From Mnemiopsis leidyi (taxonomy: Eukaryota), in contig CM108484.1 in the NCBI GenBank assembly GCA_048537945.1, positions 19,009,034-19,073,033 on the forward strand: a DNA stretch of 64,000 bases, written 5' to 3'. The notes beneath the pieces were generated by a model. It saw only the letters and a program-made list of their open reading frames with translations. It was not told the origin of the DNA and did not search any database. Position 1 is the stretch's first letter. Each line of letters opens with the position of its first letter. Positions 30,574 to 55,260 of the stretch are shown piece by piece. A program made the position numbers and the translations under genes.

Positions 30574-30746
30574 CTGTAGGTGGATGGATTTATGAAGGAG
30601 CAGCCATGTTACGGCATTCTAGTAAAGTTTTTGAGAGATTTGAGTAAGCAAGATTTTAAAAGATATCTTATCACAGTAGAGAAAATTGAGATAAGAAGAA
30701 ATGACTAAAGACAATATCTACATTCTAGAACTGCTGCAGTCCAAAC

Positions 30747-30959
30747 CTTGATAGTGATAAGCCACTGTTCTCCGCTTTTCCTGTTCACTCCAAACCTATC
30801 TTTGTAGCTCTGGAGCGCCTCGAGGTGCAGGGCGATGTTCTCTGTCAGGATGTACGCGGAGATGAACCCGACAACTTGCTCGTACGCGCCGGGGAGGTAC
30901 GCGCCGGTCTTGTTGACCAGCCATTCCTCGCCACAAACACGGTCTTTGCCTTGCTGGTC
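30747..30959 (-). CDS. MVP: MVP exon 5: DQQGKDRVCGEEWLVNKTGAYLPGAYEQVVGFISAYILTENIALHLEALQSYKDRFGVNRKSGEQWLITIK
   Basis: Acceptor cctgcag| and donor AAG|GTTTGG. Matches the vertebrate [71 protein letters not shown]. Confidence 0.85.
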
Positions 30960-31087
30960 CTGCAGGTAATATGTACAGGAATGTGGAGTGTGAGTGTTGG
31001 GATTAGTGTCAGACACCGCGGTCATTATAAAAGAATTTACGTACACGCTGTGCAGCGATAGTATTTGGTTTACAAGAGAGTACATAC

Positions 31088-31191
31088 CTTGCAGGCTTTA
31101 AGAGCTCGGAGTCTGAGGGCCTGGTTTGGACTGATAATGCTGGCTCTGATTGTCTCTACAACTTCCACAAACTTGTGAGGGAGGTAGGTTC
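31088..31191 (-). CDS. MVP: MVP exon 4: (G)[34 protein letters not shown]
   Basis: Acceptor tatcttcag| whose AG is at plus 31192-31193. Donor AAG|GTATGT. Matches the vertebrate [34 protein letters not shown]. The 6.6 kb minisatellite begins 10 bp upstream of this acceptor. Confidence 0.8.
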
Positions 31192-31200
31192 CTGAAGATA

Positions 31201-34200
31201 GGTAACAGTTAGCTCTACCTCACTGCTCTAGCTCTATTCTGTTGTCATGTACTAACTACTTAGTTACCTAGCTCTACCTCACTGCTCTAGCTCTATTCTG
31301 TTGTCATGTACTGACTACTAAGTTACCTAGCTCTACCTCACTGCTCTAGCTCTATTCTGTTGTCATGTACTGACTACTTAGTTAGCTAGCTCTACCTCAC
31401 TGCTCTAGCTCTATTCTGTTATCATGTACTGACTTCTTAGTTACCTAGCTCTACCTCACTGCTCTAGCTCTATTCTGTTGTCATGTACTGGCTGCTTAGT
31501 TAGCTAGCTCTACCTCACTGCTCTAGCTCTATTCTGTTATCATGTACTGACTACTTAGGTAGCTAGCTCTACCTCACTGCTCTAGCTCTATTCTGTTGTC
31601 ATGTACTGACTACTTAGTTACCTAGCTCTACCTCACTGCTCTAGCTCTATTCTGTTGTCATGTACTGACTACTTAGTTACCTAGCTCTACCTCACTGCTC
31701 TAGCTCTATTTTGTTATCATGTACTGACTACTTAGTTAGCTAGCTCTACCTCACTGCTCTAGCTCTATTCTGTTATCATGTACTGACTACTTAGTTAGCT
31801 AGCTCTACCTCACTGCTCTAGCTCTATTCTGTTATCATGTACTGACTACTTAGTTAGCTAGCTCTACCTCACTGCTCTAGCTCTATTCTGTTGTCATGTA
31901 CTGACTACTTAGTTACCTAGCTCTACCTCACTGCTCTAGCTCTATTCTGTTATCATGTACTGACTACTTAGTTAGCTAGCTCTACCTCACTTCTCTAGCT
32001 CTATTCTGTTGTCATGTACTGACTACTTAGTTAGCTAGCTCTACCTCACTGCTCTAGCTCTATTCTGTTGTCATGTACTGACTACTTAGTTACCTAGCTC
32101 TACCTCACTGCTCTAGCTCTATTCTATTATCATGTACTAACTACTTAGTTAGCTAGCTCTACCTCACTGCTCTAGCTCTATTCTGTTGTCATGTACTGAC
32201 TACTTAGTTACCTAGCTCTACCTCACTGCTCTAGCTCTATTCTGTTATCATGTAGTGACTACTTAGTTACCTAGCTCTACCTCACTGCTCTAGCTCTATT
32301 CTGTTATCATGTACTGACTACTTAGTTACCTAGCTCTACCTCACTGCTCTAGCTCTATTCTGTTATCATGTAGTGACTACTTAGTTACCTAGCTCTACCT
32401 CACTGCTCTAGCTCTATTCTGTTATCATGTACTGACTACTTAGTTACCTAGCTCTACCTCACTGCTCTAGCTCTATTCTGTTATCATGTACTGATTACTT
32501 AGTTAGCTAGCTCTACCTCACTGCTCTAGCTCTATTCTGTTATCATGTACTGACTACTTAGTTACCTAGCTCTACCTCACTGCTCTAGCTCTATTCTGTT
32601 GTCATGTACTGACTACTTAGTTAGCTAGCTCTACCTCACTGCTCTAGCTCTATTCTGTTATCATGTACTGACTACTTAGTTAGCTAGCTCTACCTCACTG
32701 CTCTAGCTCTATTCTGTTATCATGTACTGACTACTTAGTTAAATAGCTCTACCTCACTGCTCTAGCTCTATTCTTTTATCATGTACTGACTACTTAGTTA
32801 GCTAGCTCTACCTCACTGCTCTAGCTCTATTATGTTATCATGTACTGACTACTTAGTTACCTAGCTCTACCTCACTGCTCTAGCTCTATTCTATTATCAT
32901 GTACAGACTACTTAGTTAGCTAGCTCTACCTCACTGCTCTAGCTCTATTCTGTTGTCATGTACTGACTACTTAGTTAGCTAGCTCTACCTCACTGCTCTA
33001 GCTCTATTCTGTTGTCATGTACTGACTACTTCGTTACCTAGCTCTACCTCACTGCTCTAGCTCTATTCTGTTGTCATGTACTGACTACTTAGTTAGCTAG
33101 CTCTACCTCACTGCTCTAGCTCTATTCTGTTGTCATGTACTGACTACTTAGTTAGCTAGCTCTACCTCACTGCTCTAGCTCTATTCTGTTGTCATGTACT
33201 GACTACTTAGTTAGCTAGCTCTACCTCACTGCTCTAGCTCTATTCTGTTGTCATGTACTGACTACTTAGTTAGCTAGCTCTACCTCACTGCTCTAGCTCT
33301 ATTCTGTTGTCATGTACTGACTACTAAGTTAGCTAGCTCTACCTCACTGCTCTAGCTCTATTCTGTTGTCATGTACTGACTACTTAGTTACCTAGCTCTA
33401 CCTCACTGCTCTAGCTCTATTCTGTTATCATGTACTGACTACTTAGTTAGCTAGCTCTACCTCACTGCTCTAGCTCTATTCTGTTGTCATGTACTAACTA
33501 CTTAGTTAGCTAGCTCTACCTCACTGCTCTAGCTCTATTCTGTTGTCATGTACTGACTACTAAGTTAGCTAGCTCTACCTCACTGCTCTAGCTCTATTCT
33601 GTTGTCATGTACTGACTACTTAGTTACCTAGCTCTACCTCACTGCTCTAGCTCTATTCTGTTGTCATGTACTAACTACTTAGTTACCTAGCTCTACCTCA
33701 CTGCTCTAGCTCTATTCTGTTGTCATGTACTGACTACTTAGTTACCTAGCTCTACCTCACTGCTCTAGCTCTATTCTGTTGTCATGTACTAACTACTTAG
33801 TTACCTAGCTCTACCTCACTGCTCTAGCTCTATTCTGTTGTCATGTACTGACTACTTAGTTAGCTAGCTCTACCTCACTGCTCTAGCTCTATTCTGTTGT
33901 CATGTACTGACTACTTAGTTAGCTAGCTCTACCTCACTGCTCTAGCTCTATTCTGTTGTCATGTACTGACTACTTAGTTAGCTAGCTCTACCTCACTGCT
34001 CTAGCTCTATTCTGTTGTCATGTACTGACTACTAAGTTAGCTAGCTCTACCTCACTGCTCTAGCTCTATTCTGTTGTCATGTACTGACTACTTAGTTACC
34101 TAGCTCTACCTCACTGCTCTAGCTCTATTCTGTTATCATGTACTGACTACTTAGTTACCTAGCTCTACCTCACTGCTCTAGCTCTATTCTGTTGTCATGT

Positions 34201-37200
34201 ACTAACTACTTAGTTAGCTAGCTCTACCTCACTGCTCTAGCTCTATTCTGTTGTCATGTACTGACTACTAAGTTAGCTAGCTCTACCTCACTGCTCTAGC
34301 TCTATTCTGTTGTCATGTACTGACTAATTAGTTAGCTAGCTCTACCTCACTGCTCTAGCTCTATTCTGTTGTCATGTACTGACTACTTCGTTACCTAGCT
34401 CTACCTCACTGCTCTAGCTCTATTCTGTTGTCATGTACTGACTACTTAGTTAGCTAGCTCTACCTCACTGCTCTAGCTCTATTCTGTTGTCATGTACTGA
34501 CTACTTAGTTACCTAGCTCTACCTCACTGCTCTAGCTCTATTCTATTATCATGTACTAACTACTTAGTTAGCTAGCTCTACCTCACTGCTCTAGCTCTAT
34601 TCTGTTGTCATGTACTGACTACTTAGTTACCTAGCTCTACCTCACTGCTCTAGCTCTATTCTGTTATCATGTAGTGACTACTTAGTTACCTAGCTCTACC
34701 TCACTGCTCTAGCTCTATTCTGTTATCATGTACTGACTACTTAGTTACCTAGCTCTACCTCACTGCTCTAGCTCTATTCTGTTATCATGTAGTGACTACT
34801 TAGTTACCTAGCTCTACCTCACTGCTCTAGCTCTATTCTGTTATCATGTACTGACTACTTAGTTACCTAGCTCTACCTCACTGCTCTAGCTCTATTCTGT
34901 TATCATGTACTGATTACTTAGTTAGCTAGCTCTACCTCACTGCTCTAGCTCTATTCTGTTATCATGTACTGACTACTTAGTTACCTAGCTCTACCTCACT
35001 GCTCTAGCTCTATTCTGTTGTCATGTACTGACTACTTAGTTAGCTAGCTCTACCTCACTGCTCTAGCTCTATTCTGTTATCATGTACTGACTACTTAGTT
35101 AAATAGCTCTACCTCACTGCTCTAGCTCTATTCTTTTATCATGTACTGACTACTTAGTTAGCTAGCTCTACCTCACTGCTCTAGCTCTATTATGTTATCA
35201 TGTACTGACTACTTAGTTAGCTAGCTCTACCTCACTGCTCTAGCTCTATTCTATTATCATGTACAGACTACTTAGTTAGCTAGCTCTACCTCACTGCTCT
35301 AGCTCTATTCTGTTGTCATGTACTGACTACTTAGTTAGCTAGCTCTACCTCACTGCTCTAGCTCTATTCTGTTGTCATGTACTGACTACTTCGTTACCTA
35401 GCTCTACCTCACTGCTCTAGCTCTATTCTGTTGTCATGTACTGACTACTTAGTTAGCTAGCTCTACCTCACTGCTCTAGCTCTATTCTGTTGTCATGTAC
35501 TGACTACTTAGTTAGCTAGCTCTACCTCACTGCTCTAGCTCTATTCTGTTGTCATGTACTGACTACTTAGTTAGCTAGCTCTACCTCACTGCTCTAGCTC
35601 TATTCTGTTGTCATGTACTGACTACTTAGTTAGCTAGCTCTACCTCACTGCTCTAGCTCTATTCTGTTGTCATGTACTGACTACTTAGTTACCTAGCTCT
35701 ACCTCACTGCTCTAGCTCTATTCTGTTATCATGTACTGACTACTTAGTTACCTAGCTCTACCTCACTGCTCTAGCTCTATTCTGTTGTCATGTACTAACT
35801 ACTTAGTTAGCTAGCTCTACCTCACTGCTCTAGCTCTATTCTGTTGTCATGTACTGACTACTAAGTTAGCTAGCTCTACCTCACTGCTCTAGCTCTATTC
35901 TGTTGTCATGTACTGACTACTTAGTTAGCTAGCTCTACCTCACTGCTCTAGCTCTATTCTGTTGTCATGTACTGACTACTTCGTTACCTAGCTCTACCTC
36001 ACTGCTCTAGCTCTATTCTGTTGTCATGTACTGACTACTTAGTTACCTAGCTCTACCTCACTGCTCTAGCTCTATTCTGTTGTCATGTACTGACTACTTA
36101 GTTACCTAGCTCTACCTCACTGCTCTAGCTCTATTCTGTTGTCATGTACTAACTACTTAGTTAGCTAGCTCTACCTCACTGCTCTAGCTCTATTCTATTA
36201 TCATGTACTAACTACTTAGTAACCTAGCTCTACCTCACTGCTCTAGCTCTATTCTGTTATCATGTACTGACTACTTAGTTACCTAGCTCTACCTCACTGC
36301 TCTAGCTCTATTCTGTTGTCATGTACTAACTACTTCGTTAGCTAGCTCTACCTCACTGCTCTAGCTCTATTCTGTTGTCATGTACTGACTACTTAGCTAG
36401 CTCTACCTCACTGCTCTAGCTTTATTCTGTTGTCATGTACTGACTACTTAGTTAGCTAGCTCTACCTCACTGCTCTAGCTCTATTCTGTTATCATGTACT
36501 AACTACTTAGTTAACTAGCTCTACCTCACTGCTCTAGCTCTATTCTGTTATCATGTACTGACTACTTAGCTAGCTCTACCTCACTGCTCTAGCTCTATTC
36601 TGTTGTCATGTACTAACTACTTGGTTAGTTAGCTCTACCTCACTGCTCTAGCTCTATTCTGTTGTCATGTACTGACTACTTAGTTACCTAGCTCTACCTC
36701 ACTGCTCTAGCTTTATTCTGTTGTCATGTACTGACTACTTAGTTACCTAGCTCTACCTCACTGCTCTAGCTCTATTCTGTTGTCATGTACTGACTACTTA
36801 GTTACCTAGCTCTACCTCACTGCTCTAGCTCTATTCTGTTATCATGTACTGACTACTTAGTTAGCTAGCTCTACCTCACTGCTCTAGCTCTATTCTGTTG
36901 TCATGTACTGACTACTTAGTTACCTAGCTCTACCTCACTGCTCTAGCTCTATTCTGTTATCATGTACTAACTACTTAGTTAGTTAGCTCTACCTCACTGC
37001 TCTAGCTCTATTCTGTTATCATGTACTAACTACTTAGTTAGCTAGCTCTACCTCACTGCTCTAGCTCTATTCTGTTTCATGTACTGACTACTTTGTTACC
37101 TAGCACTACCTCACTGCTCTAGCTCTATTCTGTTGTCATGTACTGACTTCTTAGTTACCTAGCTCTACCTCACTGCTCTAGCTCTATTCTGTTGTCATGT

Positions 37201-37865
37201 ACTGACTACTTAGTTACCTAGCTCTACCTCACTGCTCTAGCTCTATTCTGTTATCATGTACTAACTACTTAGTTAGTTAGCTCTACCTCACTGCTCTAGC
37301 TCTATTCTGTTATCATGTACTAACTACTTAGTTAGCCAGCTCTACCTCACTGCTCTAGCTCTATTCTGTTTCATGTACTGACTACTTTGTTACCTAGCTC
37401 TACCTCACTGCTCTAGCTCTATTCTGTTATCATGTACTGACTACTTAGTTAGCTAGCTCTACCTCACTGCTCTAGCTCTATTCTGTTGTCATGTACTGAC
37501 TACTTAGTTAGCTAGCTCTACCTCACTGCTCTAGCTCTATTCTGTTGTCATGTACTGACTACTTAGTTACCTAGCTCTACCTCACTGCTCTAGTTCTATT
37601 CTGTTGTCATGTACTGACTACTTCGTTACCTAGCTCTACCTCACTGCTCTAGCTATATTCTATTATCATGTACTAACTACTTCGTTAGCTAGCTCTACCT
37701 CACTGCTCTAGCTCTATTCTGTTGTCATGTACTGACTACTTAGTTAGCTAGCTCTACCTCACTGCTCTAGCTCTATTCTGTTGTCATGTACTGACTACTT
37801 AGTTAGCTAGCTCTACCTCACTGCTCTAGCTCTATTCTGTTGTCATGTACTGACTACTTAGTTAC
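31201..37865. repeat. 60-bp minisatellite, about 110 units (AGTTACCTAGCTCTACCTCACTGCTCTAGCTCTATTCTGTTGTCATGTACTGACTACTT) inside an MVP intron
   Basis: Near-identical units with variants such as G/A in TGTTG/ATCATG and TTACC/TTAGC. The array starts 10 bp from the acceptor of MVP exon 4. Confidence 0.95.
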
Positions 37866-38566
37866 TGGTGTACAAACTGGAAATTGTAGCGTGGAAACTT
37901 TGTGGGAAGTCATGCTTCTTAGTTGTATGAATAGAGTTTTTAAAAGGAACCTTGCGATATTGCAGCAGTAGACTATACGACGAATCTCATGCTTGTGATT
38001 ATTTCGTCAACTGCTGATCATGGGCAGAGAAACAAGTTTTGACGTCGACCGAATACGGGATATACACACACTTGATTATTGAAGTGTTAAATATGCTTTT
38101 ACTCCATGTTTCAATTTAACTAAGGTTATTTTAAAGGGAGTATGGTTAATGAAGCAGGAAGCGTATTATCCTGTTTTCGACATGTTCGCATTAAACCATC
38201 AAAAGTACAGAGCATCCACCGAAATTTGCTCAGTATTGGCAAACAGCCAATATGATTGTGGAGTGAAGACATCTCATAAACAAGAGTAATACCGTTTTAA
38301 GAACAAGATGTGAATTGCGATGAGATCATCGCAGCACAAAACAATTAGATCACTGTTTTAACACTTCGATGAGATCATCATGAGATCACTCAGCTTCTCG
38401 GCGGTGTGGAACACTCATATAACGTAGTGTGACGTCACAATCACACACAGCAAGAAAAGGCACGTTATTCTGAGCCGTTCAACTTGAGCACATTACTAGT
38501 TAAATGTATTGTGTTTAAGATTAACGAATGTATAAACACGCGAAGAAAGCAATTTCTGAAACCCAC

Positions 38567-38771
38567 CAGGTCCGGTGAAGAGCCACTCATCATGAGCCCA
38601 TCGCTTAGTTCCATCGGTTTCAGTGAAATCTGCACTAGCGCGAAGGCGGAGTGCCGTGTTGGTGGGAACGGCGCGCAGTTTCGTGACCTTCACATCCAGT
38701 GTCTCTCCCGGATACAAGGGGAAAGGCTCTTGTGTTAGTCTGACCTCTTGGTCGGCGTGCAGCAGTTTAGC
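38567..38771 (-). CDS. MVP: MVP exon 3: [68 protein letters not shown](G)
   Basis: Acceptor tttcccag| and donor CTG|GTGGGT (phase 1). Matches the vertebrate [69 protein letters not shown]. Confidence 0.85.
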
Positions 38772-39784
38772 CTGGGAAAAGAGAGAGTTTAATGTGCGTG
38801 TAGGTTTGTGTGTGTAGCTGAGTGTAAAGCAGGTAATGTGCTAATATTTTGTCACGGTCACCCTCTCCCATATGTACACAGGAAATATTTATTGATAAAC
38901 TTCCTCTTGTAAAAATTGCACTCGGGTAAGTCTATACATTTATATTCTGCGAAGCACGCATTAAGTTAGACACGGTGTGAATATTTCACGGAATCAGTAA
39001 TTCACACGTAGAATTATTCCATACTGCTTTCAATAGAATGTATATTCTTAGCAAAATCTTACTTATTGAGGAGTTCTGAGCGTAATCAAATCTCAGATTA
39101 CACACAATTCTGAAAGGTCGACAATAAAAATTATCCTTCCTGGCCGAAGTAAAAAATTGCTTTGGTAGGATGATAAGGTTGATGCCTGACATTCTGATAG
39201 GGTGTTTCTTTCTTCGTTAGAGCCAAAGAGAATAAACAAATTGAATTTGCTGTCCAGCAACTATCTTTGAGTTCCTTATCTTATCTTTGTAAGAGTCTCG
39301 TTACAACTCTGGATTCTTTTCCTTTATACAGGTCGTATTACCGGTATTCAAGCCATTCCTTACATGGTACATTTTAGATCGAGTTGTACAGTCTCCAACG
39401 ACAGCTAAAAAGAGCCTTTTTTAAAGGCTAGTAACCTAAGCTGCGTGTACATATGTATACAATGACCAGGAAAAAGGGCTACTTGCTACCGTACTGCTAG
39501 CAGCTCCACAATTATGTAATTACCACAGCATTCCATTACAGAGAAATAGAGTGACCTAGGAACGTGCAAATTTGTTTTTAATTGTCCTAGATTAATTACA
39601 AAGTTACAAGATATGGTCGGACTGTGTATCTTACTGTGTAACAGTTCTTACAGTCGGGACCGTGACAGCCAGACAGACAATCAAATATTAGCTACAATGT
39701 AGAGATAGCAGGGTAATGTATGCAAATAATTAAACCTAAAAGGATCATGCTCCTTCAGAAAATTAACAAATAGTCGGTACGGAC

Positions 39785-39910
39785 CTGCCCGTACTGGTCG
39801 AACTGCACCTCCCCCTCCTCGTCTCTCATGACGGGGTTAGCAACAACACAGTAGTGGTTGGGCGGGATTATTACCATCTTTGTGGGCCCTTCTACAACTT
39901 TCTCATTGTC
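39785..39910 (-). CDS. MVP: MVP exon 2: DNEKVVEGPTKMVIIPPNHYCVVANPVMRDEEGEVQFDQYGQ
   Basis: Acceptor tgtttcag| and donor CAG|GTCCGT. Matches the vertebrate MVP [42 protein letters not shown]. Confidence 0.85.
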
Positions 39911-40246
39911 CTGAAACATAACCGGTTGGCAGGCGGAAAATGTCACCGAAATTCTCAAGTCCTTTATATGGGGATCGTGAGGTCTTAATGATGATTTGCA
40001 ATCTGAATAATTTTCAGCACCCACTTTGCTGCAAAAAAGTGATTTTCTAAGGCAACTGGCAAGCTGCATCGTGAGGTTGAATGTTTGTTTAGCTATAATA
40101 ACAAAGCACTGGATTGTTTGGTTTGGAACAGGAAGCTTAAAGCCACACAACTGTGACCTGAAACTTAACTGTGTTCAATGGTATCCAATGTAAATGTTAT
40201 GAAAAATATAAATGGCACAACACAAGATATCGAGATGTCCCATTAC

Positions 40247-40384
40247 CTGTCTGACAAAGGTCTCAGGTCCAATAATCGTTTTTGTGACATTGGTCTTGAG
40301 GTCAAGGACATGGATGTAGTAGTGAGGAGGGATCCTGATGACGGTCTCATCACTCGCCCCAGCTTTGTTGCCTCTGCCTGACAT
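40247..40384 (-). CDS. MVP: major vault protein (MVP) exon 1: MSGRGNKAGASDETVIRIPPHYYIHVLDLKTNVTKTIIGPETFVRQ
   Basis: Minus-strand ATG at 40384. IRIPPxxYIHVLD matches the MVP N-terminus [38 protein letters not shown]. Donor CAG|GTAATG (phase 0). Confidence 0.85.
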
Positions 40385-41212
40385 GCTACCCTATGTAATA
40401 GAGCATTCAATATGAAAATAATCAATTCTGCAACATGGCTTGTAAACAGAGATTGTTCATTTGGAGATGGTCCATGTAGGCCTGCTCCACGCTTTCAGCT
40501 ACAAGATAGTAGATTAATGATCAATGAATATGAAGTGTAAAATGGTTTTGAGAGAACCAATTTGTAATGGCCAACCCTGGGGGAGATGTGATCATGGGGG
40601 TAACAGTTCTGCAAAAGGTACAAATACGACAATTTGGTTGTAATTATTAAACGATTTTTTAAAGAAATAATACATAAGTCATAAAAAATTTCTGTGTGTA
40701 AAATTGATTAAAACCATTAAAAAGCTTTAAAAACCAAAATCATTTAATTGCATACTTTCAATAGTATGTAATAAGAACTCGTTTAGATTCTACTTAAAGA
40801 ATCTTATTTGCAAAAACATGTTGGTTAGTTAGCACAAGGTACAATCAAGTGTTAAAAGAAAATTGAATGAGCAGTTATTGTAACACCTAGCTTCCTCTGA
40901 CAACAACCTTCCTGTTGGCATTCTAAGTGAACAAGTGCACACAATATGCAATTTTAACAATTTTGCACGGAATGATATATTTATTTCTGATATTTTTGTG
41001 AAAAGCAGAAGGATATATTACTATCTTATTGTATAACATTTCAAACAAGATAATAAAAATTATTAAAGTTTAAAAACATGTTAACCTCATAATCAACAGC
41101 ATCAAAAACAGATCTATCAATATAAATCAATATAATATGAACATGTAAATCTGTAAAAATCTGTTAAAAATCCCACTGAATTTTAGTGAACATTTAAGTT
41201 GGTTGTTAAATC

Positions 41213-42475: not shown

Positions 42476-42733
42476 ATTGTATTTGTATTTGTTACACCTG
42501 TACCCATGCTTTTTGCAGTTATACTGAAGGGGCTCCTGGAAGATTCTACATCTTTTAACCGAGACCCTCCTCATTTAACCCTCAATCACGGTTTCCCGGT
42601 CATTCGGCTGAGTCAACTACAGAAGATTGCATAGGCAGGTGCCCTTAGCGCAATCCTCTAGGATTGGCGGATCTGGGAATCGAACCCCTGATCTTCTGCG
42701 TAGAAAAAAAGATACAACTACACCACCAACCCA
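42440..42733 (-). mobile_element. tRNA-derived SINE copy (same family) in MIF intron 1
   Basis: The reverse complement carries the tRNA-like head GGGTTGGTGGTGTAGTTG...GGTTCGATTCCCAGATCCGCC plus the same core as the copy at 53379. Confidence 0.7.
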
Positions 42734-42856
42734 TTAAGCAACATAGTGAGCAACATAGTAATCGAACTGTGTAGATCTTGGTCAGTGTTGATTGAAACTG
42801 CCACAAAATAATTTGTTTATTGTTGAATGGTGGTAAAAGTGAAAACTTTGATCAAC

Positions 42857-43382: not shown

Positions 43383-44700
43383 ATTTCATTTTGACGAGAT
43401 TATCTCCGTCTACCGTTCTAACGAAACGATAGCTTTAGCTGCGTGAGTCTGGAGTCGGGTATCACCGTGACAAATTAAATTAAGAGTATTGTAGGCTTAC
43501 AACCTACCGTCATCGCTTCGCGCGCGTCACACCTGCTCCTCGAGCGAAGCGTAATGACTAAGATGACTAAGATTCAAAGAATCGTGGACGCGCATCGCCC
43601 GTTAATTAAGAGTAGTAATTATCTTATTTAGAGTTTTAAAGATATTTTCTGCAGGGTTTAGGTTTGATGATGCTGGCGTCATTATAAATGATTTATTTAT
43701 TTATTTATTATTGGTTCAAAGATTAGACCCCTTAATATAGATCATCTAAATGTCATATTAATTTCTATTTGTTTTTCTTAACTTCGTTGCAGCAGGGCTA
43801 GGCGTAGGTAACGTGTAGCAAGTATGTGGAGCAGTCTATTTGCTATTATTTATTTTAGTTCTATACTGTTTTACTGAATTCATTATATTTGAATTATATT
43901 TGCTTAGCCAACATAGCCGGATTATCAGGACGCTTTTGCTGAGCCAACATAGCCCTGTAGCTCGCGCTGAGCGCACCCTATCGGGACGTTGTCAGACGTT
44001 GCCTGACCTGCTGCCACGAAGCGCGCGGCGCGGCAGCGAAAATGGGCTGCAACGCAAGGCAATCGGGAGACACATAGGTGTGTGAGCTTTTGCGTTGTGC
44101 ACAAGGATGTACATGTTTAGCCAAGGGACGCTTTTGCTTGCGTGCCCTGGGGACCTCAGTTGTTGTAAGTTGATAACCTACTGTCGCGGCCATCACGCGC
44201 TGTCACGCATTTCTGGCCTGGCGACATGAATTTCGGAGAAATTTCGGAGAAATTCTAGACGCGCATCGCCCGTTGACTCAGTTGCAGTTTTGTCGCAGTG
44301 ATACCTTAACGGGCGATGCGTTGTATGTTGATAACCTACTGTCGCGGCCATCACGCGCTGTCACGCATTTCTGGCCTGGCGAAGAAATTCTAGACGCGCA
44401 TCGCCCGTTGAGCGATGCGCGTCTAGAAATGCGTAAAAGCGCGTGATGGCCGCGACAGTATGTTTGTACGGCAGCGCGCACCCTCCTGTCATTTTATTCC
44501 TCTATTCGCTTCGAATGAGGGTCGGACGAAGTCAGACAACATTAACGGGCGATGCTTCGCTCGAGGAGCAGGTGTGACGCGCGCGAAGCGATGACGGTAG
44601 GTTGTAAGCCTACAAAGACAACAGTATGTTTGTCGCGGTGATGCCCGACTCACGCAGCTAAAGCTGAACGAGAGTCGGGCGAAATACGATTGTTTTACGG
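43383..44700. mobile_element. composite foldback-type element: 230-bp terminal inverted arms plus internal nested palindromes
   Basis: The arms at 43383-43610 and 44470-44700 are reverse complements. They share CCGTCTACCGTTCTAACGAAACGATAGCTTTAGCTGCGTGAGTC...GGCTTACAACCTACCGTCATCGCTTCGCGCGCGTCACACCTGCTCCTCGAGCGAAGC. The interior has a perfect palindrome TCTAGACGCGCATCGCCCGTTGAGCGATGCGCGTCTAGA and a 60-bp direct repeat at 44160 and 44325. Confidence 0.7.
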
Positions 44701-46494
44701 CACAAAAGTGCCGCGATTCATTATTGGTCGAGGGGTTACCACGTGCCGCGCGCCACGTGATTCTTTCTCCAACGTTAAAGTATCAAAATCACGTGTTAAT
44801 TTGATGACGCAAGCACCCACCTGACCGCGCGCAGTAGCTCAGCTTTCCTTCGTCGGTAGAATCGAGCGTAAAATTTTGTCGGTTTAGTATAAAACGTGGT
44901 GCTGGTCTCATTTCAGAGGTTGAATGTTTCTTGTTTGTTTGTTGGGCATTCGAAAGTTTTTACCTCTTTCAGTCATGATTTTCAATTCTAGCTTAAATAG
45001 TGACTCCTCCATTGCTTGTTGTTTCAGCTGGCAATCAATTTCGTGGTTTTACCTAGAAAAACGATGGATTGCTGCTAATCATCAATCATAATTCAATCAT
45101 TGCGCTGTGGCCGCATACGGGGTTTTCGAGCTAACTAGCAGCATCTCGATCTGACAGCAGTACTCAGAAGAAAGTTGTACACATACAGTCCACCAAATCT
45201 TTTGCCATTTTACTACATGAACAGTGTTGACTTAAGTACCTGTAGAATTTTCAATTCAAGCGTTCAAGTTAGGGTTCAAGTTAGGGTTAAATCCCGTATC
45301 GGTATGAAATAAATCTCAAACAGTTCAATTCCCCTGTTGGCTTGAATAGAATTTCGTCACGACCTTCTTCAATTCAGAGTAAAAAAGACATGAATGTCGT
45401 TAGTTTGATTATAGCCAGAGTTGCAGTTTGACATAATAGCTACACCGATCTCCGACCTATTTTGTTGCTGTTGCTATTCACACTGACAGTTGACAAATCT
45501 TAGAAAAGTTTCAATTATACTAGTAAGCAGTACACTTGGCTGTTTTTGACGGTGGTAAGCAAGTGGTACTGTCCTCATTTCTGTAAATTTTTGTTCTGTC
45601 AGATCCATTACTGTGTCGATCTATGAGCCTACCAAATAATTCTGTCAAAACTTGGTTCTTGCTCGCTTTACTTTTAGCTTGACTTGTGTGATTGGTTTTG
45701 TTGCACGGATTTAAATGCTGACCTATAATTAGTTGTGTTGGGGTTTTCAGACACAGGCAAAATGTTATATCCCAATCGAATTTGTGTGGCATCAAGTGGC
45801 GCTCTCGGCCACGTGTATGGAAGGACTAGATACCGATTTTATAATCACAGATATCAACTCACCCTCAGTTACGAGCTCTGTTATTTACTATCCAAAGTTT
45901 TACGTTACTGTTGATACGGAGTCTTAACGGTACGTTGAGTTCCAGAGCTGTGACTTGTGGCTTTATAAAACGTATCTCACATTTTCGTCTTATTATAGGA
46001 GACAGGGCCGAAACCGAACGGCAGGGAGAAGGTGATATCTCACATTTTGACTTTTTCGAAAAGTTTTTTAAAGCCTCAGCCTTCACATCAAGTCATACTG
46101 CGACCTATATACTACTGCTATAAATATTCTCATATTCTATTAATAATGTAAGTTATAGTCGAAATTACACCGCTTAAAAGCAGCTGTCAATATCGGCTTC
46201 TTCCGCAATCCTTCTCATTCACCTTAAGCTGATCTTTGACGCCCGACTCCCTTTTCTTCACACTTTCTGATGAGTTTTGCCTGAACTCACCAGTCTAAAC
46301 AGCATCATTACAGTTGGTTACTGACAAAATACGCAAAACGAAGCCGGTTGACCGGACCGACAGACCGGACGGGCGTGCCTATATCAGTTGAAAAGTAGGT
46401 CCAAACTTTAGAAGTTTTACGTTTAGACGTCTTTAGCGAAAGAACAGTTAAACTGTCTGGGACACGTTAAGATTCCTCATTTCGGGCATTTCTC

Positions 46495-46612
46495 AATTTG
46501 GGCACTGAGTGGTAAAGTTTGAGCACTAAGTGGTTCAGTTTGGGTACTGAGAGGTTCGGTTAGGGTACTGGAGGTTCAGTCTGGGTACTGAGAGGTTCAG
46601 TTTGGGCACTGG
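46495..46612. repeat. 20-bp tandem repeat x6 (GGTTCAGTTTGGGTACTGAGA)
   Basis: Direct periodicity, mirrored at about 62760-62880. Confidence 0.85.
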
Positions 46613-48448
46613 CCTAATAAATCTGGTTAAAGATCACATGCAACATGCTCACTGAGCCAGCCCAGGGCTACGAATATCAAGTGCATTACCTGACAAGTGA
46701 ATAATAAGCGAGAACTAAAAATTTAGAGAATTTCCCGATCTGGTATATTTTGGAAATAAAACTAGACCGGACGGACCGGTCGGCTCCGAAGTTTAGACAT
46801 GTTGTGTGCACAGTACTAAGTTGATCGAGATTTTATTTCTGCTAATCGTTGAAAAGCTTATAACAATAAAGAAATACGACAGACAATTACGTTAGCCTAA
46901 ATCCAGAGGGCGAATTTGTGGCGAGTTTTAAAATGATGGGTTACCAGGCTTTAAGGCTAAAATCACAATTCATTTTTCGCCTTGTCCAACTTTTTCTTTC
47001 AATTATTTGTTTAGAGTTGCGCTAGAATCGTTGGTGGCATATTTGCAGTCTATACTTTAGTTGTATTATTGCTAATTCATTGGTATGTATATACAGATAT
47101 CCCGATGTGGCAATATTTAATTGCTCAAGTTTTAACTGTATTCACTTTAAAAAGTCAATACTATTAACTTTTATTATTCCTTCTCTTGAATATCTACTTT
47201 GGATATTAGTTGTAACATTTTATTCCTGGTAACAATTGTATGTTGTAGAGGCTTTTAAATTGTCGTTAATAGATACTCAACAACTGTTGAACGTTGATAT
47301 ATATGTAGTTTATGATAGATTATATCCGATTCAGTTCAAAATCTCTTCCTTTTAGGATTTCATGGTGACGAAGTGTGTGTGAATCCAAACCACTCCAACA
47401 ACTTTTATAAGATTGAAAGAAGACCTCCTAAAGGAACACTCAGGACCTTTGCAGTTCGCCAGTTCTATGAGATATCGTGTGGATGACTGTCTATCTATAA
47501 GCACGCTAAGGGATCAAGAAGAACTGTGCTCCAGTGTATCAGGTACTTATTAACAAGTCAACTTAACATAAAAGCTCTCAAGCTTAAAGTTATAATAATG
47601 TTTACATATCAGTGCTTAGATATTTGTAGTGCTGTAGCGGAAAAGTCACGCTATCGGATTTGAATAATAATATTTTTAAGTACCATGGTCAGAACAACCT
47701 TTGTATTGGAATTATGTAAAAGTTTTATCAGGAGTAGAATCATTTTTGACCCTCACCAGATACGAGAAGGTATCCGTAAAGATATGGGAGATGGTACTGC
47801 CATTAATACACGCGGTTAATATGGAAACGTAGTAGAGCGAGACACGCTGTTACCATGGCAACGCAGCAAAACGAGACAGCCAGTTACCATTGCAACCTAG
47901 CGGTCGACACACACGGTTATTGAATGGTAACGTAGCAGAACGAGTCACCGTTGTCACCATGGCAGTGCAGACGATTGATGTACAGACAGAAGGCCGACAG
48001 AAGACGGTGCTGTGATGAAAACTATCAGATTAGATTTATACAAGCAGACTGGTTGGTGACCTTTTTTCTTTTTAGATTTTAAATATAGATTAAGTCTTAG
48101 AGTGCAACTGAGCAACCGTTAAATCATATTTACACAGATCATATTAGCATATACAGTACATTTATGATCCGGCTGCCGATTTAAGGATGCAGATTTCACT
48201 ATTCATGACTAAAAATAGTAATCGCAGATAACGTTACATCGATCTCAGCTTGATCCTCGCTCATTTCGATTTGACGTCCTGAAAGATTTCACCAATGAGC
48301 TGTATAGTAGGTAAGATTGGCTAATGTATAAAAGTAAGAAATTTTATAAAACTTGTTATTTCATTACGTGCTTTTCTTATTTAATTTAAGGAATCCTTTA
48401 AATTTCGGACTTGCCCAATCTATAGAATAACCTGCACACATACCCACA

Positions 48449-48476
48449 AACTCTCTCTCTTTCTCTATCTCTCTCT

Positions 48477-48563
<87 letters not shown>

Positions 48564-48575
48564 CTCTCACTCACT
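48449..48575. repeat. (CT)n microsatellite (left palindrome arm)
   Basis: Dinucleotide run, mirrored by (GA)n at 61083-61255. Confidence 0.95.
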
Positions 48576-48954
48576 CTGTGTCTCACACTTGAGCACTTGG
48601 TTGGGTAAATGTATTAATTGGAATTCGCAGCTAAATATCGAGCATAATCACTTCCACTATCTCGCGACATCAGAATTCGGAATGTTCGATAGGTATATAA
48701 TCGATCAGTGCAACACTTTATCTGTTGTCGTATGAATTGAATTTTAGTTGAACTTAGAACATTTCTCGTAATTACACCGACCACTATCTCACAGCCATGG
48801 AATGTTCGAGTCTTTCACTGCTCACTTATTATAACTGTGCCCGGTACGGCGGCGCCAACGTGCTCTTCTGATCACGCCTCATCGATAAGTTTCCATGCCG
48901 GCTCGGTAGTTCTACTTCCATTATAGGCAACGATGGTCTTCTGAATAACGGTGA

Positions 48955-49105
<151 letters not shown>

Positions 49106-50439
49106 AGAGACACTAGTTAAACCAAAATTAATTCCTGTTTAAGTTTTCTTTGCTAAACTGTTTAAGTTTTCCTTTTTTAAACTGGAGCTGTCATTCAAAT
49201 TTACTATCAGCTAGTGTGTGTATTCAGTATTTACGGAAGTTGGCACCAAATCCAAAGTTGATCCAAACAGTGCCACCAGTGACTCAAAGGGGACCACTTG
49301 CAATGATACAATATCTGTACAAGTCAAAACTTTTAACTAATTTGGTCTACAGCGAGTTCTGGACGAATCGGCTAAATCGGCGTTGCAGAACATGCTGTGG
49401 CAAAATTTTATGTTTTAAAACATGCTCGGATCGGGCAAATATATTGAATATTGATTCCAGTAGTAATGCTAAAAAGTTTTGGGATGATTGGCCGTCTGAA
49501 AGTGTGGTACTGTGGTCAATCTGGGCCATATTTCTCTCTTGTGACGTCACACGTGTCTTGTCATACACAATGACAGAAATTGACATTTTCAAAGCATGCT
49601 CGGATTTGTCCGGAATCCAGAATAACAATATTGGACCAACTGACGCGATCTGTGATTTTATCGTAACATTTTATCATTTCCCATAGCAACTCTGTGTTTG
49701 GGCTAAACTCAGTGTAAGGTAAATTCTAGAACTTGATTTCAATTTTAATGATCAATCGTGAAATTTAACTTGCACGTCGGACATGGCTTACTGCTCCGTG
49801 AACCTAAGGAATTTTAAGAAGAACTGTAGATGAACTTCTTAAACCACGTGGTTTATCTTACATGCTAAGCAATTAGTCTACTCTCCAGGCAGATCATGTA
49901 CATAGCAAGATTCGATATGAGGCATGACCTCTGTTATGGGAATCCGCTTTTGGTTTCTCTTTTGAGTACTGTCTCCCTACGATTATGGTTATGCTACTTT
50001 TCGCGTGTTTGAACATAAGATGCTTCAGGCACTCGTCTACGGTCTAACTCGATGCCCGAATATAAATAATTGATGGCCGCTCGGAAAAACATTTTCGCTG
50101 GTACAGTAGAAACTTCTAGACTCACGGTGCACGTGGGCGAGCCGCGCTAGTTTCCCATGGGTCGTTCGATAACGGCGCCACCACATACCAATCTGATAAT
50201 GGTCTATTCTTCAAATCTTGGACATTTTAGCAGTACAAATTAGTTACATGATCTCGATAGATCTTACACTCAGCTAGACTTCTTATTTATTTGTCAAATC
50301 AATGTTGGATAACAGAAATAGATAATCATGTCCAGCCGTTCAAATGATGTCGACACGAAACAGTAAACTTATTGAATATATCCAGCCCCTTATTGTTCCG
50401 AACTACATAATTTCAAATTTGGCGGCACGGTGCTATTCG

Positions 50440-53040
50440 CTCAAATGTTTTCGAGGAGTAAAATCGAAGTAATAATTATCAAGCAGTTACAGTGTTACAA
50501 GCAGTTACAATCACGTTTTAGCAACCTTATGTTTGTAACAAGCATGCTTAATGAGTTGCTTCAATTTCGTCACAGCAAGTTAAGATGTGGAACAAGCATG
50601 GTTAACGAGTTGTTAAAATTACGTCACAGCGGGCTTATGTTTTGAACAAGCATAGTTAGCGGCTTGTTACAATTAAGTTACACAAGCTTTGGTGTCGAAC
50701 AAGCATGGTTAACGAGTTATTAAAATTACGTTACAGCAAGTTTTTGTGTGTAACTAGGATGGTTAACGAGTTGTGACAATTATGTTACAGCAAGCTTATG
50801 TTTGGAATAAGCATGATTAGCGGGTTGATACATTAACGTTAAACAAGTTTTGGTGAGGAACAAGCATGATTAGCAAGTTGTTACATTAGCATTAAACAAG
50901 TTTTGGTGTGGAACTAGCATGGTTGACGAGTTGTAACAAATACGTTGCATAGGTTTTTGTGTGAAACAAGGATGGTTGACGAGTTGTAACTATGACGTTA
51001 CAGCAAGCTTATATTTACAAAAGCATTTTCAGCGAGTTGTGATATTATAAATTATGTTCAGAACAAGCATGGTTGGCGGGTTGTCACAATTATGTTGCAG
51101 CAAGTTTTTATATAGAACAAGCATGGTTAGCGAGTTTTTACTATTACGTTAAGGCGAGCTTATGGCTTATGTATGGAACAAGCACTAAGCAGTTGTTACA
51201 ATTAAGTTACACAAGCTTTGGTGTCGAACAAGCATGGTTGGCTAGTGGCTACAATTAAATTACAGCAAGTTTTCGTGTGGAAAAAGTATGGTTGACGAGT
51301 TGTAACTATTACGTTACAGCAAGCTTATATTTGGAACAAGCATGTTAAGCGAGTTGATACATTTTCGTTACAGCAAGTTTTGGTGTGGAACACGCATGGT
51401 TAACGAGTTGTAACTATAACATTACAGCAAGCTTATGTTTGAAACAAGCATTTTAAGCGAGTTGTTACAATTACGTTACAGCAAGTTTTTGTGTCGAACA
51501 AGCATGATTAACGAGTTGTAACTAATACGTTACAGCAAGCTTATGTTTGGAACAAGCATAGTTCACGAGTTGTAACTATTACGTAATAGCAAGCTTATGT
51601 TTGGAACAAGCATGGTTAACGAGTTATTAAAATTGCGTTACAGCAAGTTTTGATATGGAACAAGCATGGTTAGCGAGTTTTTACTATTACGTTTAGGCAA
51701 GCCTATGACTTATGTTTGGAACAAGCATAGTTAGCGGCTTGTTATATTTAAGTTACACAAGCTTTCGTGTCGAACATGCATGGTTGGCTACAATTACATT
51801 ACAGCAAGTTTTTGTGTGTAACTAGCATGGTAAACGCGTTGTAACTATTACGTTACAGCAAGCTTATGTTTGGAACAAGCATGTTTAGCGAGTTCATACA
51901 TTTACGTTACAGCAAGTTTTGGTATGGAACAAGCATGATTAGCAAGTTGTTACAAATACGTTACACAAATTTTTGTGTGAAACTAGGATGGTTTTTACAT
52001 TCACGTTACACAATTTTTTGTGTAGAACAAGCATGATTAACGAGTTGTAACAGTTACAGCAAGCTTAAGTTTGGAACAGGCATGGTTAGCGAGTTGCTAG
52101 AATTACGTTTAAGCAAGTGCCAAGTTGAGGTGTGAAACAAGCATCGTTAGCGAGTTGTTACAATTACGTTACAGCAAGTGCTAAGATTAGGTGTAGAACA
52201 AGCATTTTTAGCGAGTTGTTATATTAACGTTACACAAGTTTTGGTGCTGAACGAGCATGGTAAACGAGTTGTAACTATAACGTTACAGCAAGCTTATGTT
52301 TGAAACACGCATTTTTAGCGAGTTGTTATATTAACGTCACACCAAGTTTTGGTGTGGAACAAGCATGGCTAGCGAGTTCTTACAATTACGTTACAGCAAG
52401 TGTTCGTTGGGCCAGGCATTTTTTAGCGAGTTGTTATATTACCGTTACACCAAGTTTTGGTGTGGAACAAGCATAATTAACGAGTTGTAACTAAGCTTAT
52501 GTTTGAAACAAGCATGATTAGCGGGTTGATACATTAACGTCAAACAAGTTTTCGTGTGGAACAAGCATGATTAGCAAGTTGTTACATTATCGTTAAGCAA
52601 GTTTTGGTGTGGAACTAGCATGGTTGACGAGTTGTTACTATGACGTTACAGCAAGCTTATATTTAAAAAAGCATTTTCAGCGAGTTGTAATATTAACGTT
52701 ACAGCAAGTTTTTATGTGGAACAAGCATGGTTACCGAGTTGTTACATTCACGTTACACAAGTTTTCATGTGGAACAAGCATGGTTTATAGCGAGTTGTTA
52801 CATCCACGTTACACAAGTTTTGTGTGGAACAAGCATGGTTAACGAGTTGTAACTATAACGTTACAGCAAGCTTATGTTTGGAACAGACATGGTTAGTGAG
52901 TTGTTAAAATTACGTTACAGCAAGTGCCAAGTTTAGGTGTGAAACAAGCATGGTTAGAGAGTTGTTACAATTACGTTACAGCAAGTGCCTAGTTTAGGTG
53001 CGGAACAAGCATGATTGTGAGTTGTTACAATTTCGATGTG
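50440..53040. repeat. 55-bp satellite array, about 47 units (ACAAGCATGGTTAACGAGTTGTAACTATTACGTTACAGCAAGCTTATGTTTGGA)
   Basis: Direct visual periodicity. The units are diverged by about 10-20%. Confidence 0.9.
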
Positions 53041-53378
53041 GTATAAAACGATGTAGGTAGTGAAAATGTCATGTTGTTGCAATAGCGTGGCGAAAATCCC
53101 GAACAAAATATTAAATACACACTGTTAAGACTACTTTTAGAGACAAAAACTACTGGTACAATTTAAGTATGCTATTGTACAAATAATTTGAGCTACGAAC
53201 ATGAAAAATGGAATATTTTTCGAAACGTCAGATTAAATGCGATTTAGTTTTTTAACAACAAAGTGATCATCTCGACTTTCATTGTCCTTTTTATCATAAA
53301 AGTTTCAAAGTAGGCCATATTTACAACACCGTACCACTGTTGATTCTAGAGCTTTATCAATTTTGTTTTATGTCTTAT

Positions 53379-53718
53379 GGGCTGGTGGTGTAGTGGTTTG
53401 CTTCTCGGCTCCCACGCAGGAGGTCGGTGGTTCAAATCCCGTATCCGCCAGTCCTAGAGAAGTGCGCTAAGGGCATTTGCCTATGCAACCTTCTTCGGTC
53501 GACTCAGCCGAATGATCGGGAAACCGTGATTGAGGGTTAAATGAGTAGCTGCCCATTGCAGCGAAGTCTCGGGCGATAAAAGTATGGTACACAGTACCTT
53601 AACCGTCACTGGCGTGTATGTATAATTGTACATTCGGCCTCCTGTAATTGGCCGTTACACTTGTGTAACATGTGGCTGTTGGAGTGTCCGAATTAAAATA
53701 AGTATGAGATATATTAAG
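53379..53718 (+). mobile_element. tRNA-derived SINE copy
   Basis: 5' tRNA-like head GGGCTGGTGGTGTAGTGGTT...GGTTCAAATCCCG with Pol III box A/B-like motifs. It is followed by the core CTCAGCCGAATGATCGGGAAACCGTGATTGAGGGTTAAATGAG, which is shared with the copy at 42440-42733. This copy is absent from the homologous position of the opposite palindrome arm (about 56395), so it inserted after the duplication. Confidence 0.75.
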
Positions 53719-54839
53719 GTCCCGACTGCAGGATCTTGGTCGTTGTTATACTGTTAACCCAAAATCTAACATCCATTTTTTTCAGATTTGACGGACTTCC
53801 CGAATTATCACAGTAGACTGTAGACTGTAGTCGATGTTCCCTCAACTGTACGTGTTGCATTACATCGGTTGTTGCTATCGTCACGATGACACTTCATGTA
53901 TGTTGGCGATAAGTGTGTGGGTCTGCAATTGTTACGACTATTTATGTGACTATGTACGACTAGGAAATGCGATCTTTTAGGGAACTTTTTACTCAAAATA
54001 ATTTCGAACAGAAACGTTGGTATTCATTCTGAAAACAAACAATGAATATCTTCATGAACTTCTTATAGTATTATGCAAACGAGGTTGTAATCGTATTACC
54101 ATTGTTATCTATAGTGCTTCTAAGTCTACATCGATGTTTTTTATTGTTACTTTATATTGTTGACTCATTTTCATTTATTGCTGTAAGTTACATAAATGGA
54201 CGACGGAATTCTTGGGGAGGAGTCGGAAATGGTTTATCACGTGACGGCGTATATAAAGATTGATTGTTCGCATCTTGCTTCTAAGCTTCTTGTTTAGAAG
54301 CTGACACATGATATCATGATGGGAAAAATTTTCATCTCTTCTACAAGAGTTCTGACGCCCCTGGTCCATAACTTTGCATATTAATTGTAGATTGTGTTAA
54401 AACTGACAAATGTAAACTTTATTGTTATCTACGATAGTCGATATCTCCAATTTGAAAGTAACTATAATAAAAGATTGACTTGCTAGTTATTCTGTTTTTT
54501 TCAGTTCACAGTTACACTGATAAGAAATTCGTTTCAATTTACGATTACTATACTACTGATATTACTGTGTTACTGATAAGACGTTATATTTATATTCCTC
54601 CAAGTCCAAGGATATATATCGCCTAGATCATAGATCTTAATATAGCTGCAGAATACTGAAAGCTTAGTAAATTTCACCCTTACGCTTTTCCGGGGACATT
54701 TATTGGCAACGGCCAATAAATGTGTAATGTGTGTAAGATTAAAACGTGCTCTTCAGTTTTCGTACGTTACCTGCAAGCTCTAGCTTGTAGCTCTCATACT
54801 TTAACTTAGTACGGCGGTCGCCGTACAAACTTAGTAATA

Positions 54840-55260
54840 AATTATCACGTGACCAAACGCGCGCATTTATGCTGCGCGCGCCCGCATATTTCGTCCGTCT
54901 ATCGTTTCGTTAGAACGTTAGACGGATATAATCTCGTCAACAGTATGTTCAATGTTATCAACCTAAAAGGTGATACCCGACGCGACTCACACAGCTAAAG
55001 CTGAACGAGATCGTTTCGTTAGAACGGTAGACGCGACGGATATAATCTCGTCAATTGCAGTTTTGTTTGCTACACGTTGCATAGCCCTGCTGCGCTGCCG
55101 CGAAAACAAGTTTTTGTTGCTTTGTCGGAAAGTTGACGAGATGATATCCGTCTACCGTTCTAACGAAACGATAGACGGACGAAATATGCGGGCGCGCGCA
55201 GCGTAAATGCGCGCGTTTAGTCACGTGATACATTTATTACTAATTTTGTACGGCGACCGC
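54840..55260. mobile_element. foldback element at the centre of the giant palindrome (same family as 43383-44700)
   Basis: The arms ACTTAGTACGGCGGTCGCCGTAC...CGTCTATCGTTTCGTTAGAACG...GATATAATCTCGTCAAC end at 54941 and their reverse complement starts at 55132. The 190-bp spacer GGTGATACCCGAC...CAGCTAAAGCTGAACGAGATCGTTTCGTTAGAACGGTAGACG is homologous to the terminal arms of the 43383-44700 element. Confidence 0.7.

Follow-up and report, generated by a model that had tools for sequence, protein, structure and literature searches.

The block at positions 43391–44673 of a 64,000-nucleotide stretch of Mnemiopsis leidyi DNA (assembly GCA_048537945.1, contig CM108484.1, positions 19,009,034 to 19,073,033; this whole stretch is referred to as the window, and positions are counted within it) is best read as a nest of small non-autonomous DNA transposons, or miniature inverted-repeat transposable elements (MITEs), of one superfamily and not as a single foldback element. 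The probability of this reading is put at roughly 0.85. The nest contains at least ten separate MITE insertions or remnants of ∼45–117 bp, five of which have their own perfect 8–9-bp target-site duplications (Table 1). The units are discrete, carry copy-specific duplications, are dispersed over multiple loci, are inserted into one another and have no coding capacity. An earlier note on the window had assigned 43383–44700 to a non-autonomous foldback or MITE-like family; the non-coding, transposon-derived and multi-copy character of the sequence is borne out, but the single foldback unit is not.

The foldback appearance of the block arises from an inverted repeat of 120 bp and 84% identity (43431–43550 and 44554–44665), which has a perfect 62-bp core (43489–43550 and 44554–44615) and an extra 15-bp inverted arm (43592–43606 and 44541–44555). 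The inverted repeat is real, but the inverted termini are not 230 bp long as previously described; the arms measure ∼175 and ∼125 bp, and their alignment includes a 42-bp indel and a non-homologous patch. The left arm corresponds to the A-type unit A1 with the end of the C-type unit C1, and the right arm to the A-type unit A2 with the C-type unit C3. A1 and A2 are flanked by different perfect duplications (TTAAGAGTA and AGACAACA, respectively), which identifies the two arms as independent, oppositely oriented insertions. A2 is 100% identical over 62 bp to A1 and also to an unlinked A copy in L005 (L numbers designate sampled loci and contigs outside the window), indicating a young homogeneous subfamily and not a foldback.

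A single non-autonomous foldback-type element with long inverted termini, spanning 43383–44700 and moving as a unit, would explain why the 120-bp repeat with its perfect core brackets a non-coding block and why the modules follow the same order on both sides, namely a C-type 3′ end, 14–15 bp and then the start of an A-type unit. The 14–15-bp stretches between C and A, however, are unrelated on the left and the right, and the right one belongs to the separate insertion of the J-type unit. The two arms have their own, different duplications, whereas no duplication flanks the block as a whole when 43383–43390 is compared with the bases after 44673 or 44700. A target-site duplication, which the earlier note had proposed to look for at the block ends, was likewise not seen at 43383 or 43391 against 44673 or 44700. 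The motif CCGTCTACCGTTCTAACGAAACGAT, quoted before as an arm sequence, is present at the left end only and hence does not belong to an inverted terminus; the right end stops at 44673 and also lacks the 42-bp terminal unit. The C-A...A-C architecture of the block was also absent from nine of nine other module-bearing loci (a sample of ∼185 kb, ∼164 kb of it from relatives). A single foldback element therefore has a very remote chance.

The interior of the block contains nested direct and inverted repeats (44162–44464), including 115-bp and 92-bp direct repeats at 44162–44411. When the B-type unit B2 and one copy of its duplication are removed, the surrounding B3 sequence reads as the reverse complement of a B unit. 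The sequence formerly called a perfect 39-bp palindrome lies at the edge of B2; it is a true hairpin with perfect 16-bp stems, but the palindrome is not perfect through the 7-nt loop, and it is interpreted from the duplication around B2 as the junction of a nested insertion. The duplication of J is visible after removal of A2, and J homologues with duplications are located at L008 12565–12638 and L011 9555–9625. C1 aligns end to end with C-type units of L006, L008, L009 and L010, which have 8-bp duplications at those loci, and its first 42 bp are the unit common to the centre of a large palindrome described below. C3 is an inverted match to the 3′ end of C1; within it, 44646–44673 matches 54983–55010 at 96%. 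D1 resembles D units of L006 and L008 that bear 8–9-bp duplications. The motif TTTGTCRCRGTGATRCC occurs three times in the window, always within the block, compared with 0.1 expected.

The earlier statement that the block has no coding capacity holds. The longest stop-free stretch in the block is 89 amino acids, Pfam matches were absent, and scans of the block for Rfam and tRNA models returned no matches. The calculated fold potential as a single strand is strong, at −330.8 kcal/mol for the block and z = −13.5 for the palindrome centre.

Units of the family are 69–185 bp long and non-coding, and they start with TTG and a 17-nt palindrome and end in ...CAA on the plus strand. Both ends, each read inward on its own strand, consist of TTG and the 17-nt palindrome, whose 7-bp stem closes a 3-nt loop. 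For module A, twelve copies were aligned together with 70-bp flanks. Homology extends from TTGTAGG to CCCGTYAA in every copy, the flanks are unrelated, and the bordering bases are duplicated copy by copy (for example ACTGTTTGC, TACCATGC, GCGTTGCGG, CTCAAACAT, AGTTGTAA and AGCCGCGCG). In this lineage module A has a 101-bp consensus (TTGTAGGCTTACAACCTACCGTCATCGCTTCGCGCGCGTCACACCTGCTCCTCGAGCGAAGCGTAAGATTCAAAGAATCGTGGACGCGCATCGCCCGTTAA), which is seen as a solitary copy at L013 155–255. Module B has the same ends as module A around a different interior, with duplications in nine of the ten aligned copies. Module C (TTGACGGATGATATCCGTC ... GGTATCACCGCGACAA), whose first 42 bp are the motif taken earlier for a foldback arm, has 8-bp duplications in L006, L008, L009, L010 and L011. 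In a systematic scan, 22 of 35 paired units have a duplication, of 8 bp in 14 units and 9 bp in eight; 20 are exact and two contain one mismatch. When both flanks were shifted by 25 bp as a control, duplications were found in 0/35. A scan with generic termini returned 23 exact cases, and a search for TTG...CAA plus a duplication extended the same rule to further subfamilies (D, J and a 67-bp type).

The terminal stems vary by subfamily and include GTAGGTT-GAT-AACCTAC, GTAGGTT-TAC-AACCTAC, GACGGGC-GAT-GCGCGTC, GACGGAT-GAT-ATCCGTC, GCCAGAC-GTT-GTCTGGC and GTCTGAC-GTT-GTCAGAC. Stem pairing at the termini averages 4.5 of 7 pairs in what is a noisy set, whereas control TTG sites average 2.9. In sequence, the ends of a given unit agree at just ∼10 of 19 bases; they have the TTG and the hairpin geometry in common. 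The units are rich in GC and CpG within an AT-rich genome.

Dispersal of the family was established through spurious protein translations of the repeat. The 76-residue translation of the right arm, used as query in an exhaustive phmmer search, recovered 14 predicted open reading frames (ORFs), 13 of which share CR[LF]TTYRHRFAR..PAPRAK.KI.RIVD..RP, the translation of 43490–43606 in module A; parts of the block beyond module A are also represented in the translation of one ORF, P0186. Ten of these ORFs were traced to ten contigs in five ENA assemblies, nine of the contigs belonging to four assemblies and one short contig to the fifth; eight are long (135 kb to 1.4 Mb) and two short (684 and 1,437 bp). 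Copies elsewhere in genomes, the lack of which the earlier note had named as grounds for refuting the family, are thus present. ENA metagenome assemblies supplied the closest material. Nucleotide identity is ∼96% for short contigs, and the very close relatives in the ∼185-kb sample are three short contigs of 684–1,437 bp; long contigs of a related species are 72–88% identical in alignable non-coding DNA. The genes near the family loci differ between the long contigs and are all of animal type (TGF-beta, SRCR, 7tm_1, PAP2 and MCM). By BLAST and module mapping, each long-contig locus is a 1.5–4-kb GC-rich cluster of the same short modules; A, B, C, D and J recur at other loci, and their order, number and orientation vary. 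The modules are borne by eight fetched contigs of related animals and one of a very close relative, with flanks that differ. Other searches were negative: two conserved motifs, scanned as patterns against JGI metagenome contigs, gave 0 matches, the early-loci scan was also blank, and a word-indexed protein search with a 1,600-residue concatenation of the stop-free translations of the block found no match among the 8,000 candidates reached, a number that may be a cap behind which true matches were hidden.

These loci also bear on the view that the repeats are scars of local replication errors, left by template switching or inverted duplication in a structure-prone stretch of DNA, mobile elements playing no part. 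In favour of this view, nested palindromes occur throughout the region and a large palindrome adjoins it. Against it, the units of ∼100 bp, sharply bounded and flanked by copy-specific 8–9-bp duplications, recur across many contigs unlinked to one another, a signature of transposition and not of local duplication. Replication scarring is very improbable.

Nesting can be observed directly. In the window and in relatives, B2 lies in B3, A2 lies across the end of J, a C unit lies inside an A/B hairpin (L008), an A unit inside a C unit (L009) and a B unit inside a D unit (L006). Many insertions fall in or right beside the terminal palindrome of a resident copy, including J, which abuts C3, and many of the duplications are GC-rich despite the AT-rich genome. 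The insertion pattern and the GC-rich duplications suggest self-targeting, in a sample that is biased towards clusters. The units would be mobilised in trans by a DDE-type transposase that recognises the terminal palindromes and makes staggered cuts of 8–9 bp, and the ends of resident copies, or the bases next to them, would be the preferred targets of new insertions. The resulting GC-rich clusters would contain copies in opposite orientations, and long inverted repeats and hairpins would arise as a by-product.

Several observations weigh against the reading as a MITE nest. No recognisable duplication flanks C1, C3, B3 or the three copies at the palindrome centre, and about a third of the paired units in relatives have none. 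In the ∼270 kb sampled, neither an autonomous element nor a transposase was found between matching termini, and Pfam searches with the ORFs of the left palindrome arm, a BED-like ORF in the arms and the ORFs of the block gave no match. The loci were found through module A, and their clustering is partly an ascertainment effect.

Compared with known systems, the units share with MITEs and MITE nests the small size, lack of coding capacity, occurrence in multiple copies, defined termini, copy-specific duplications, nested and clustered insertion and hairpin potential. They differ in that the two termini are only weakly alike in sequence (∼10/19) and share a structure instead, in the presence of several subfamilies with distinct palindromes, in the GC- and CpG-rich composition, and in that an autonomous partner was not seen in the sampled DNA. 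Foldback elements such as Drosophila FB and sea-urchin TU have a modular, non-coding make-up with abundant inverted repeats and are linked to rearrangements; their long inverted termini belong to one element, and one duplication surrounds the whole unit. The nest resembles them in the former respects, whereas what look like its termini were inserted separately, each with a duplication of its own, and the block itself has no duplication.

Elements of the Merlin superfamily have 8- or 9-bp duplications, inverted repeats of 24–462 bp and a conserved terminal 5′-GG-3′ (PMC8101967). The duplication length of the units agrees with Merlin; unlike Merlin, the units begin with TTG without 5′-GG-3′ and have only a short palindromic terminus, and no IS1595-type DDE transposase was found here. 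hAT elements have a strictly 8-bp duplication and YARNG termini, whereas 8 of the 22 duplications observed here are 9 bp and the termini are TTG. The 8–9-bp duplications fit Merlin best; judged solely by duplication length, hAT, P and Mutator would also be compatible. A literature search with the terminal sequences gave no match. It is conceivable, though distinctly improbable, that the units represent an undescribed group of DNA transposons whose ends are recognised by their shape (TTG plus a 7-bp stem with a 3-nt loop) while the stems co-vary, which generates 8–9-bp duplications, homes into resident palindromes and forms nests that can seed kilobase-scale palindromes.

The large palindrome to the right of the nest has arms of at least 8.9 kb, which are 84% identical when gaps are included and 93–97% identical in ungapped blocks. 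Its arms were delimited by a reverse-strand BLAST comparison of the left and right halves. An assembly artefact was considered and rejected since the arms differ by 3–16% with many indels. Homology continues at the edge of the window, where 45356 pairs with 63999; the true extent of the palindrome could lie beyond the window, and the nest at 43.4–44.7 kb could be inside the left arm. A degenerate ∼54-bp satellite (70–75% identity) occupies ∼2.5 kb of the left arm (50504–52986) and ∼2 kb of the right arm (56809–58855), and this size difference accounts for much of the difference in arm length. Both arms also contain a short ORF with a BED-finger-like start (..SKRKTSKVWNYFS..), at 62902–63132 on the plus strand and mirrored at 46311–46466 on the minus strand, which has no Pfam match at E ≤ 0.05.

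The sequence of the block recurs at the palindrome centre, as had been noticed earlier: 43391–43432 is found at 95% identity on both sides of the spacer. A single segmental duplication does not account for the sharing, in that part of the block recurs at the centre in a non-mirror position. Homology between the arms stops at 54940 and 55133, exactly at the TTGACGAG terminus of two inverted C-type ends, and the 17-mer CGTTCTAACGAAACGAT occurs four times, compared with 0.01 expected. No duplications were found around the three centre copies or bracketing the spacer. Two inverted C-type MITE ends ∼190 bp apart would constitute a short inverted repeat, on which a broken or stalled strand might have folded back and primed copying of its flank; such copying would make the MITE termini the exact starting points of the arms, which reach at least 9 kb. 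Fold-back nucleation at the inverted C-type ends is the most likely reading of the palindrome, at about even odds. The nucleation step is suggested by the anatomy of the centre. With regard to the earlier proposal that the element had driven the rearrangement, the MITE termini do lie exactly at the junctions of arms and spacer, and the driving step is what we infer from that position.

The fold-back reading is weakened by the fact that just the initial 42 bp of a C unit are present in the arms. The right arm is cut off by the end of the window before its outer boundary, and other routes could give the same picture. One such route is that the MITEs at the centre were not the nucleators, the palindrome having arisen from an unrelated break or template switch followed by MITE insertion, or from transposase-induced breaks during aberrant transposition. 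This is consistent with the apparent preference of the family for the ends of resident copies, by which abutting C ends would attract later insertions, and with a spacer built of MITE pieces. However, no duplication brackets the spacer or its pieces; the C ends that terminate the arms are mirror images and must be part of the duplication event or older; and the location of both arm boundaries exactly at a repeat terminus is a prediction of fold-back annealing. This alternative is considered fairly unlikely.

A further possibility is that the palindrome comprises two copies of one long element arranged head to head (43391–54940, 11.5 kb, with the 42-bp unit as terminal inverted repeat, and its inverted twin, which leaves the window) or one giant foldback whose outer ends include the block. 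The inverted match of 43391–43432 to 54899–54940 at 95% would fit such elements, as would the unbroken arm homology at the window edge, by which the block could be inside the left arm. This view predicts a mirror of 43391–44673 ending ...CTCGTCAA at ∼65.9–66.0 kb, after which the bases left of 43391 should be repeated as a duplication. The 42-bp unit, however, is the 5′ end of a MITE of 83–185 bp that is complete at 43391–43473 and has its own duplications in relatives, no duplication is present at 43390/54941, and no transposase remnant was detected in the arm by Pfam. The case for an 11.5-kb element with the 42-bp unit at its ends was accordingly downgraded on the ground that this unit is the end of an 83-bp MITE, and long elements of either kind are highly improbable.

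Fold-back nucleation at the C-type ends has precedents in other systems. Palindrome formation by fold-back at short inverted repeats was reportedly described by Tanaka et al. in 2002 (cited in PMC3834830). Alu pairs are a documented case of fold-back capping at interspersed repeats that lie close together in opposite orientation (PMC3834830), and fold-back annealing has been demonstrated both for such pairs and for engineered short repeats (PMC3834830; PMC10164571). The palindrome in the window resembles fold-back palindromes in its large size, its short asymmetric centre and the start of its arms at inverted copies of an interspersed repeat. It differs from them in being germline, evolutionarily old (the arms have diverged by 3–7% and have many indels) and interstitial.

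Table 1. Positions of MITE units, palindrome parts and gene exons in the window, with the duplications that flank the units.
Feature	Position	Strand	Description	Flanking duplication
C1, complete C-type MITE, 83 bp	43391–43473	+	TTGACGAGATTATCTCCGTCTACCG ... GTCGGGTATCACCGTGACAA	Not clean: ATTTCATT vs ATTAAATT, 6/8 match
A1, A-type MITE, 117 bp	43489–43605	+	101-bp consensus plus 16-bp internal tandem duplication	TTAAGAGTA, perfect, 9 bp: 43480–43488 and 43606–43614
AT-rich stretch	43615–∼43900		Outside the assigned units	
D1, probable D-type MITE, 74 bp	43989–44062	+	TTGTCAGACGTTGCCTGACC ... GCAACGCAAGGCAA	TCGGGACG / TCGGGAGA, 6/8 match only
B1, B-type MITE, 114 bp	44163–44276	+	TTGTAAGTTGATAACCTAC ... 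GACGCGCATCGCCCGTTGA	CTCAGTTG, perfect, 8 bp: 44155–44162 and 44277–44284
C2, remnant of C-type unit	44290–44305	−	3′-terminal 16 bp, TTGTCGCAGTGATACC	
B3, inverted B-type copy	44306–44463	−	Internally deleted, without 5′ hairpin, split by B2	None recognisable in flanks
B2, B-type MITE, 91 bp	44321–44411	+	Inserted in terminal palindrome of B3	GCGATGCG, perfect, 8 bp: 44313–44320 and 44412–44419
39-bp hairpin	44389–44427		B2 3′ end, duplicated GCGATGCG, inverted B3 3′ end	
J, J-type MITE, 76 bp	44464–44539	+	TTGTACGGCAGCGCGCACCC ... GAAGTCAGACAA	CAGTATGT, perfect, 8 bp: 44456–44463 and 44622–44629
A2, A-type MITE, 74 bp	44542–44615	−	Internally deleted; inserted across J 3′ end	AGACAACA, perfect, 8 bp: 44534–44541 and 44616–44623
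C3, 3′ 44 bp of C-type MITE	44630–44673	−	5′ 42-bp unit absent	
Left palindrome arm	45356–54940		Minimum extent	
Innermost bases of left arm	54899–54940	−	C-type 5′ end, 42 bp, 95% to 43391–43432	
Asymmetric spacer, 190–192 bp	54941–55132		Remainder beside the two pieces below: 78 bp of other sequence	
B-like 5′ fragment in spacer	54941–54968	−		
Nearly complete C-type copy in spacer	54969–55054	−	81% to 43391–43466	
Innermost bases of right arm	55133–55174	+	C-type 5′ end, 42 bp, 95% to 43391–43432	
Right palindrome arm	55133–63999		Truncated by window end	
MVP C-terminal coiled-coil exon	within 24115–24558	−		
MVP second exon	within 39755–40150	−		
MVP first coding exon	near 40178–40390	−	MSGRGNKAGASDETVIRIPPHYYIHVLD...	

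The window is animal DNA of ∼40% GC and rich in satellites. The genes MVP, TGF-beta, SRCR, 7tm_1 and MCM in the window and near the related loci, together with TTAGGG-like repeats, point to an animal origin of the window and the related contigs. The major vault protein (MVP) gene occupies 24115–40390 on the minus strand, and the MITE nest sits 3–4.3 kb upstream of its start codon. The protein encoded by the MVP exons is identical or nearly so in several related species sampled in metagenomes. A search for the orthologous region of the related species with MVP exons 1–2 and neighbouring ORFs returned only distant full-length MVPs, and contigs L001 and L002, which were reached through the C-terminal MVP exon, end before this region. 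These two contigs of the related species contain a TTG...CAA unit (TTGCCTGGTTCCTCCTGGC...CAGCAA; L001 12041–12294 and L002 7277–7372) with the same 9-bp duplication TAGTAGATT on both; they are probably haplotypes, and the units measure 254 and 96 bp, respectively.

Other repeats were observed in and around these loci. An MVP intron contains a 59-bp satellite (31210–37864; 113 copies, 96% identity) with very strong GC and AT skew. Tandem arrays include a 14-bp minisatellite of 63 copies (9045–9933), an 83-bp array of ∼21 copies (11143–12912) and a 63-bp array of five copies (16513–16832). Another interspersed repeat of ∼230 bp is found upstream of the nest (42477–42734), in the palindrome arm (53377–53548, minus strand) and at two loci of the related species (L007 11934–12160 and L011 19872–19995), at 76–85% identity. 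Immediately right of the nest, the GC-rich stretch 44700–44900, outside the assigned MITE units, contains several CACGTG boxes and small near-palindromes such as CACGTGCCGCGCGCCACGTG; it may represent more decayed family members or a promoter-like region. In L008, telomere-like (TTAGGG)n-type motifs (10805–10838 and 13296–13354) are located within another repeat, which forms 274–288-bp inverted and direct copies beside the MITE nest.

The family itself is unexceptional and the block is an ordinary MITE nest; only two of its features might be unusual, namely palindromic ends whose stems co-vary and what appears to be homing into the ends of resident copies. Clusters of MITEs in opposite orientations mimic a single foldback element and constitute an annotation trap, and alignment of copies from other loci together with their flanks separates the two readings. 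The palindrome provides a concrete case: it is old and germline, its arms measure at least 9 kb, and ends of an interspersed repeat fall exactly on its axis. The anatomy of its centre is what one would expect if nucleation of large palindromes by short inverted repeats also takes place beyond cancer and laboratory systems.

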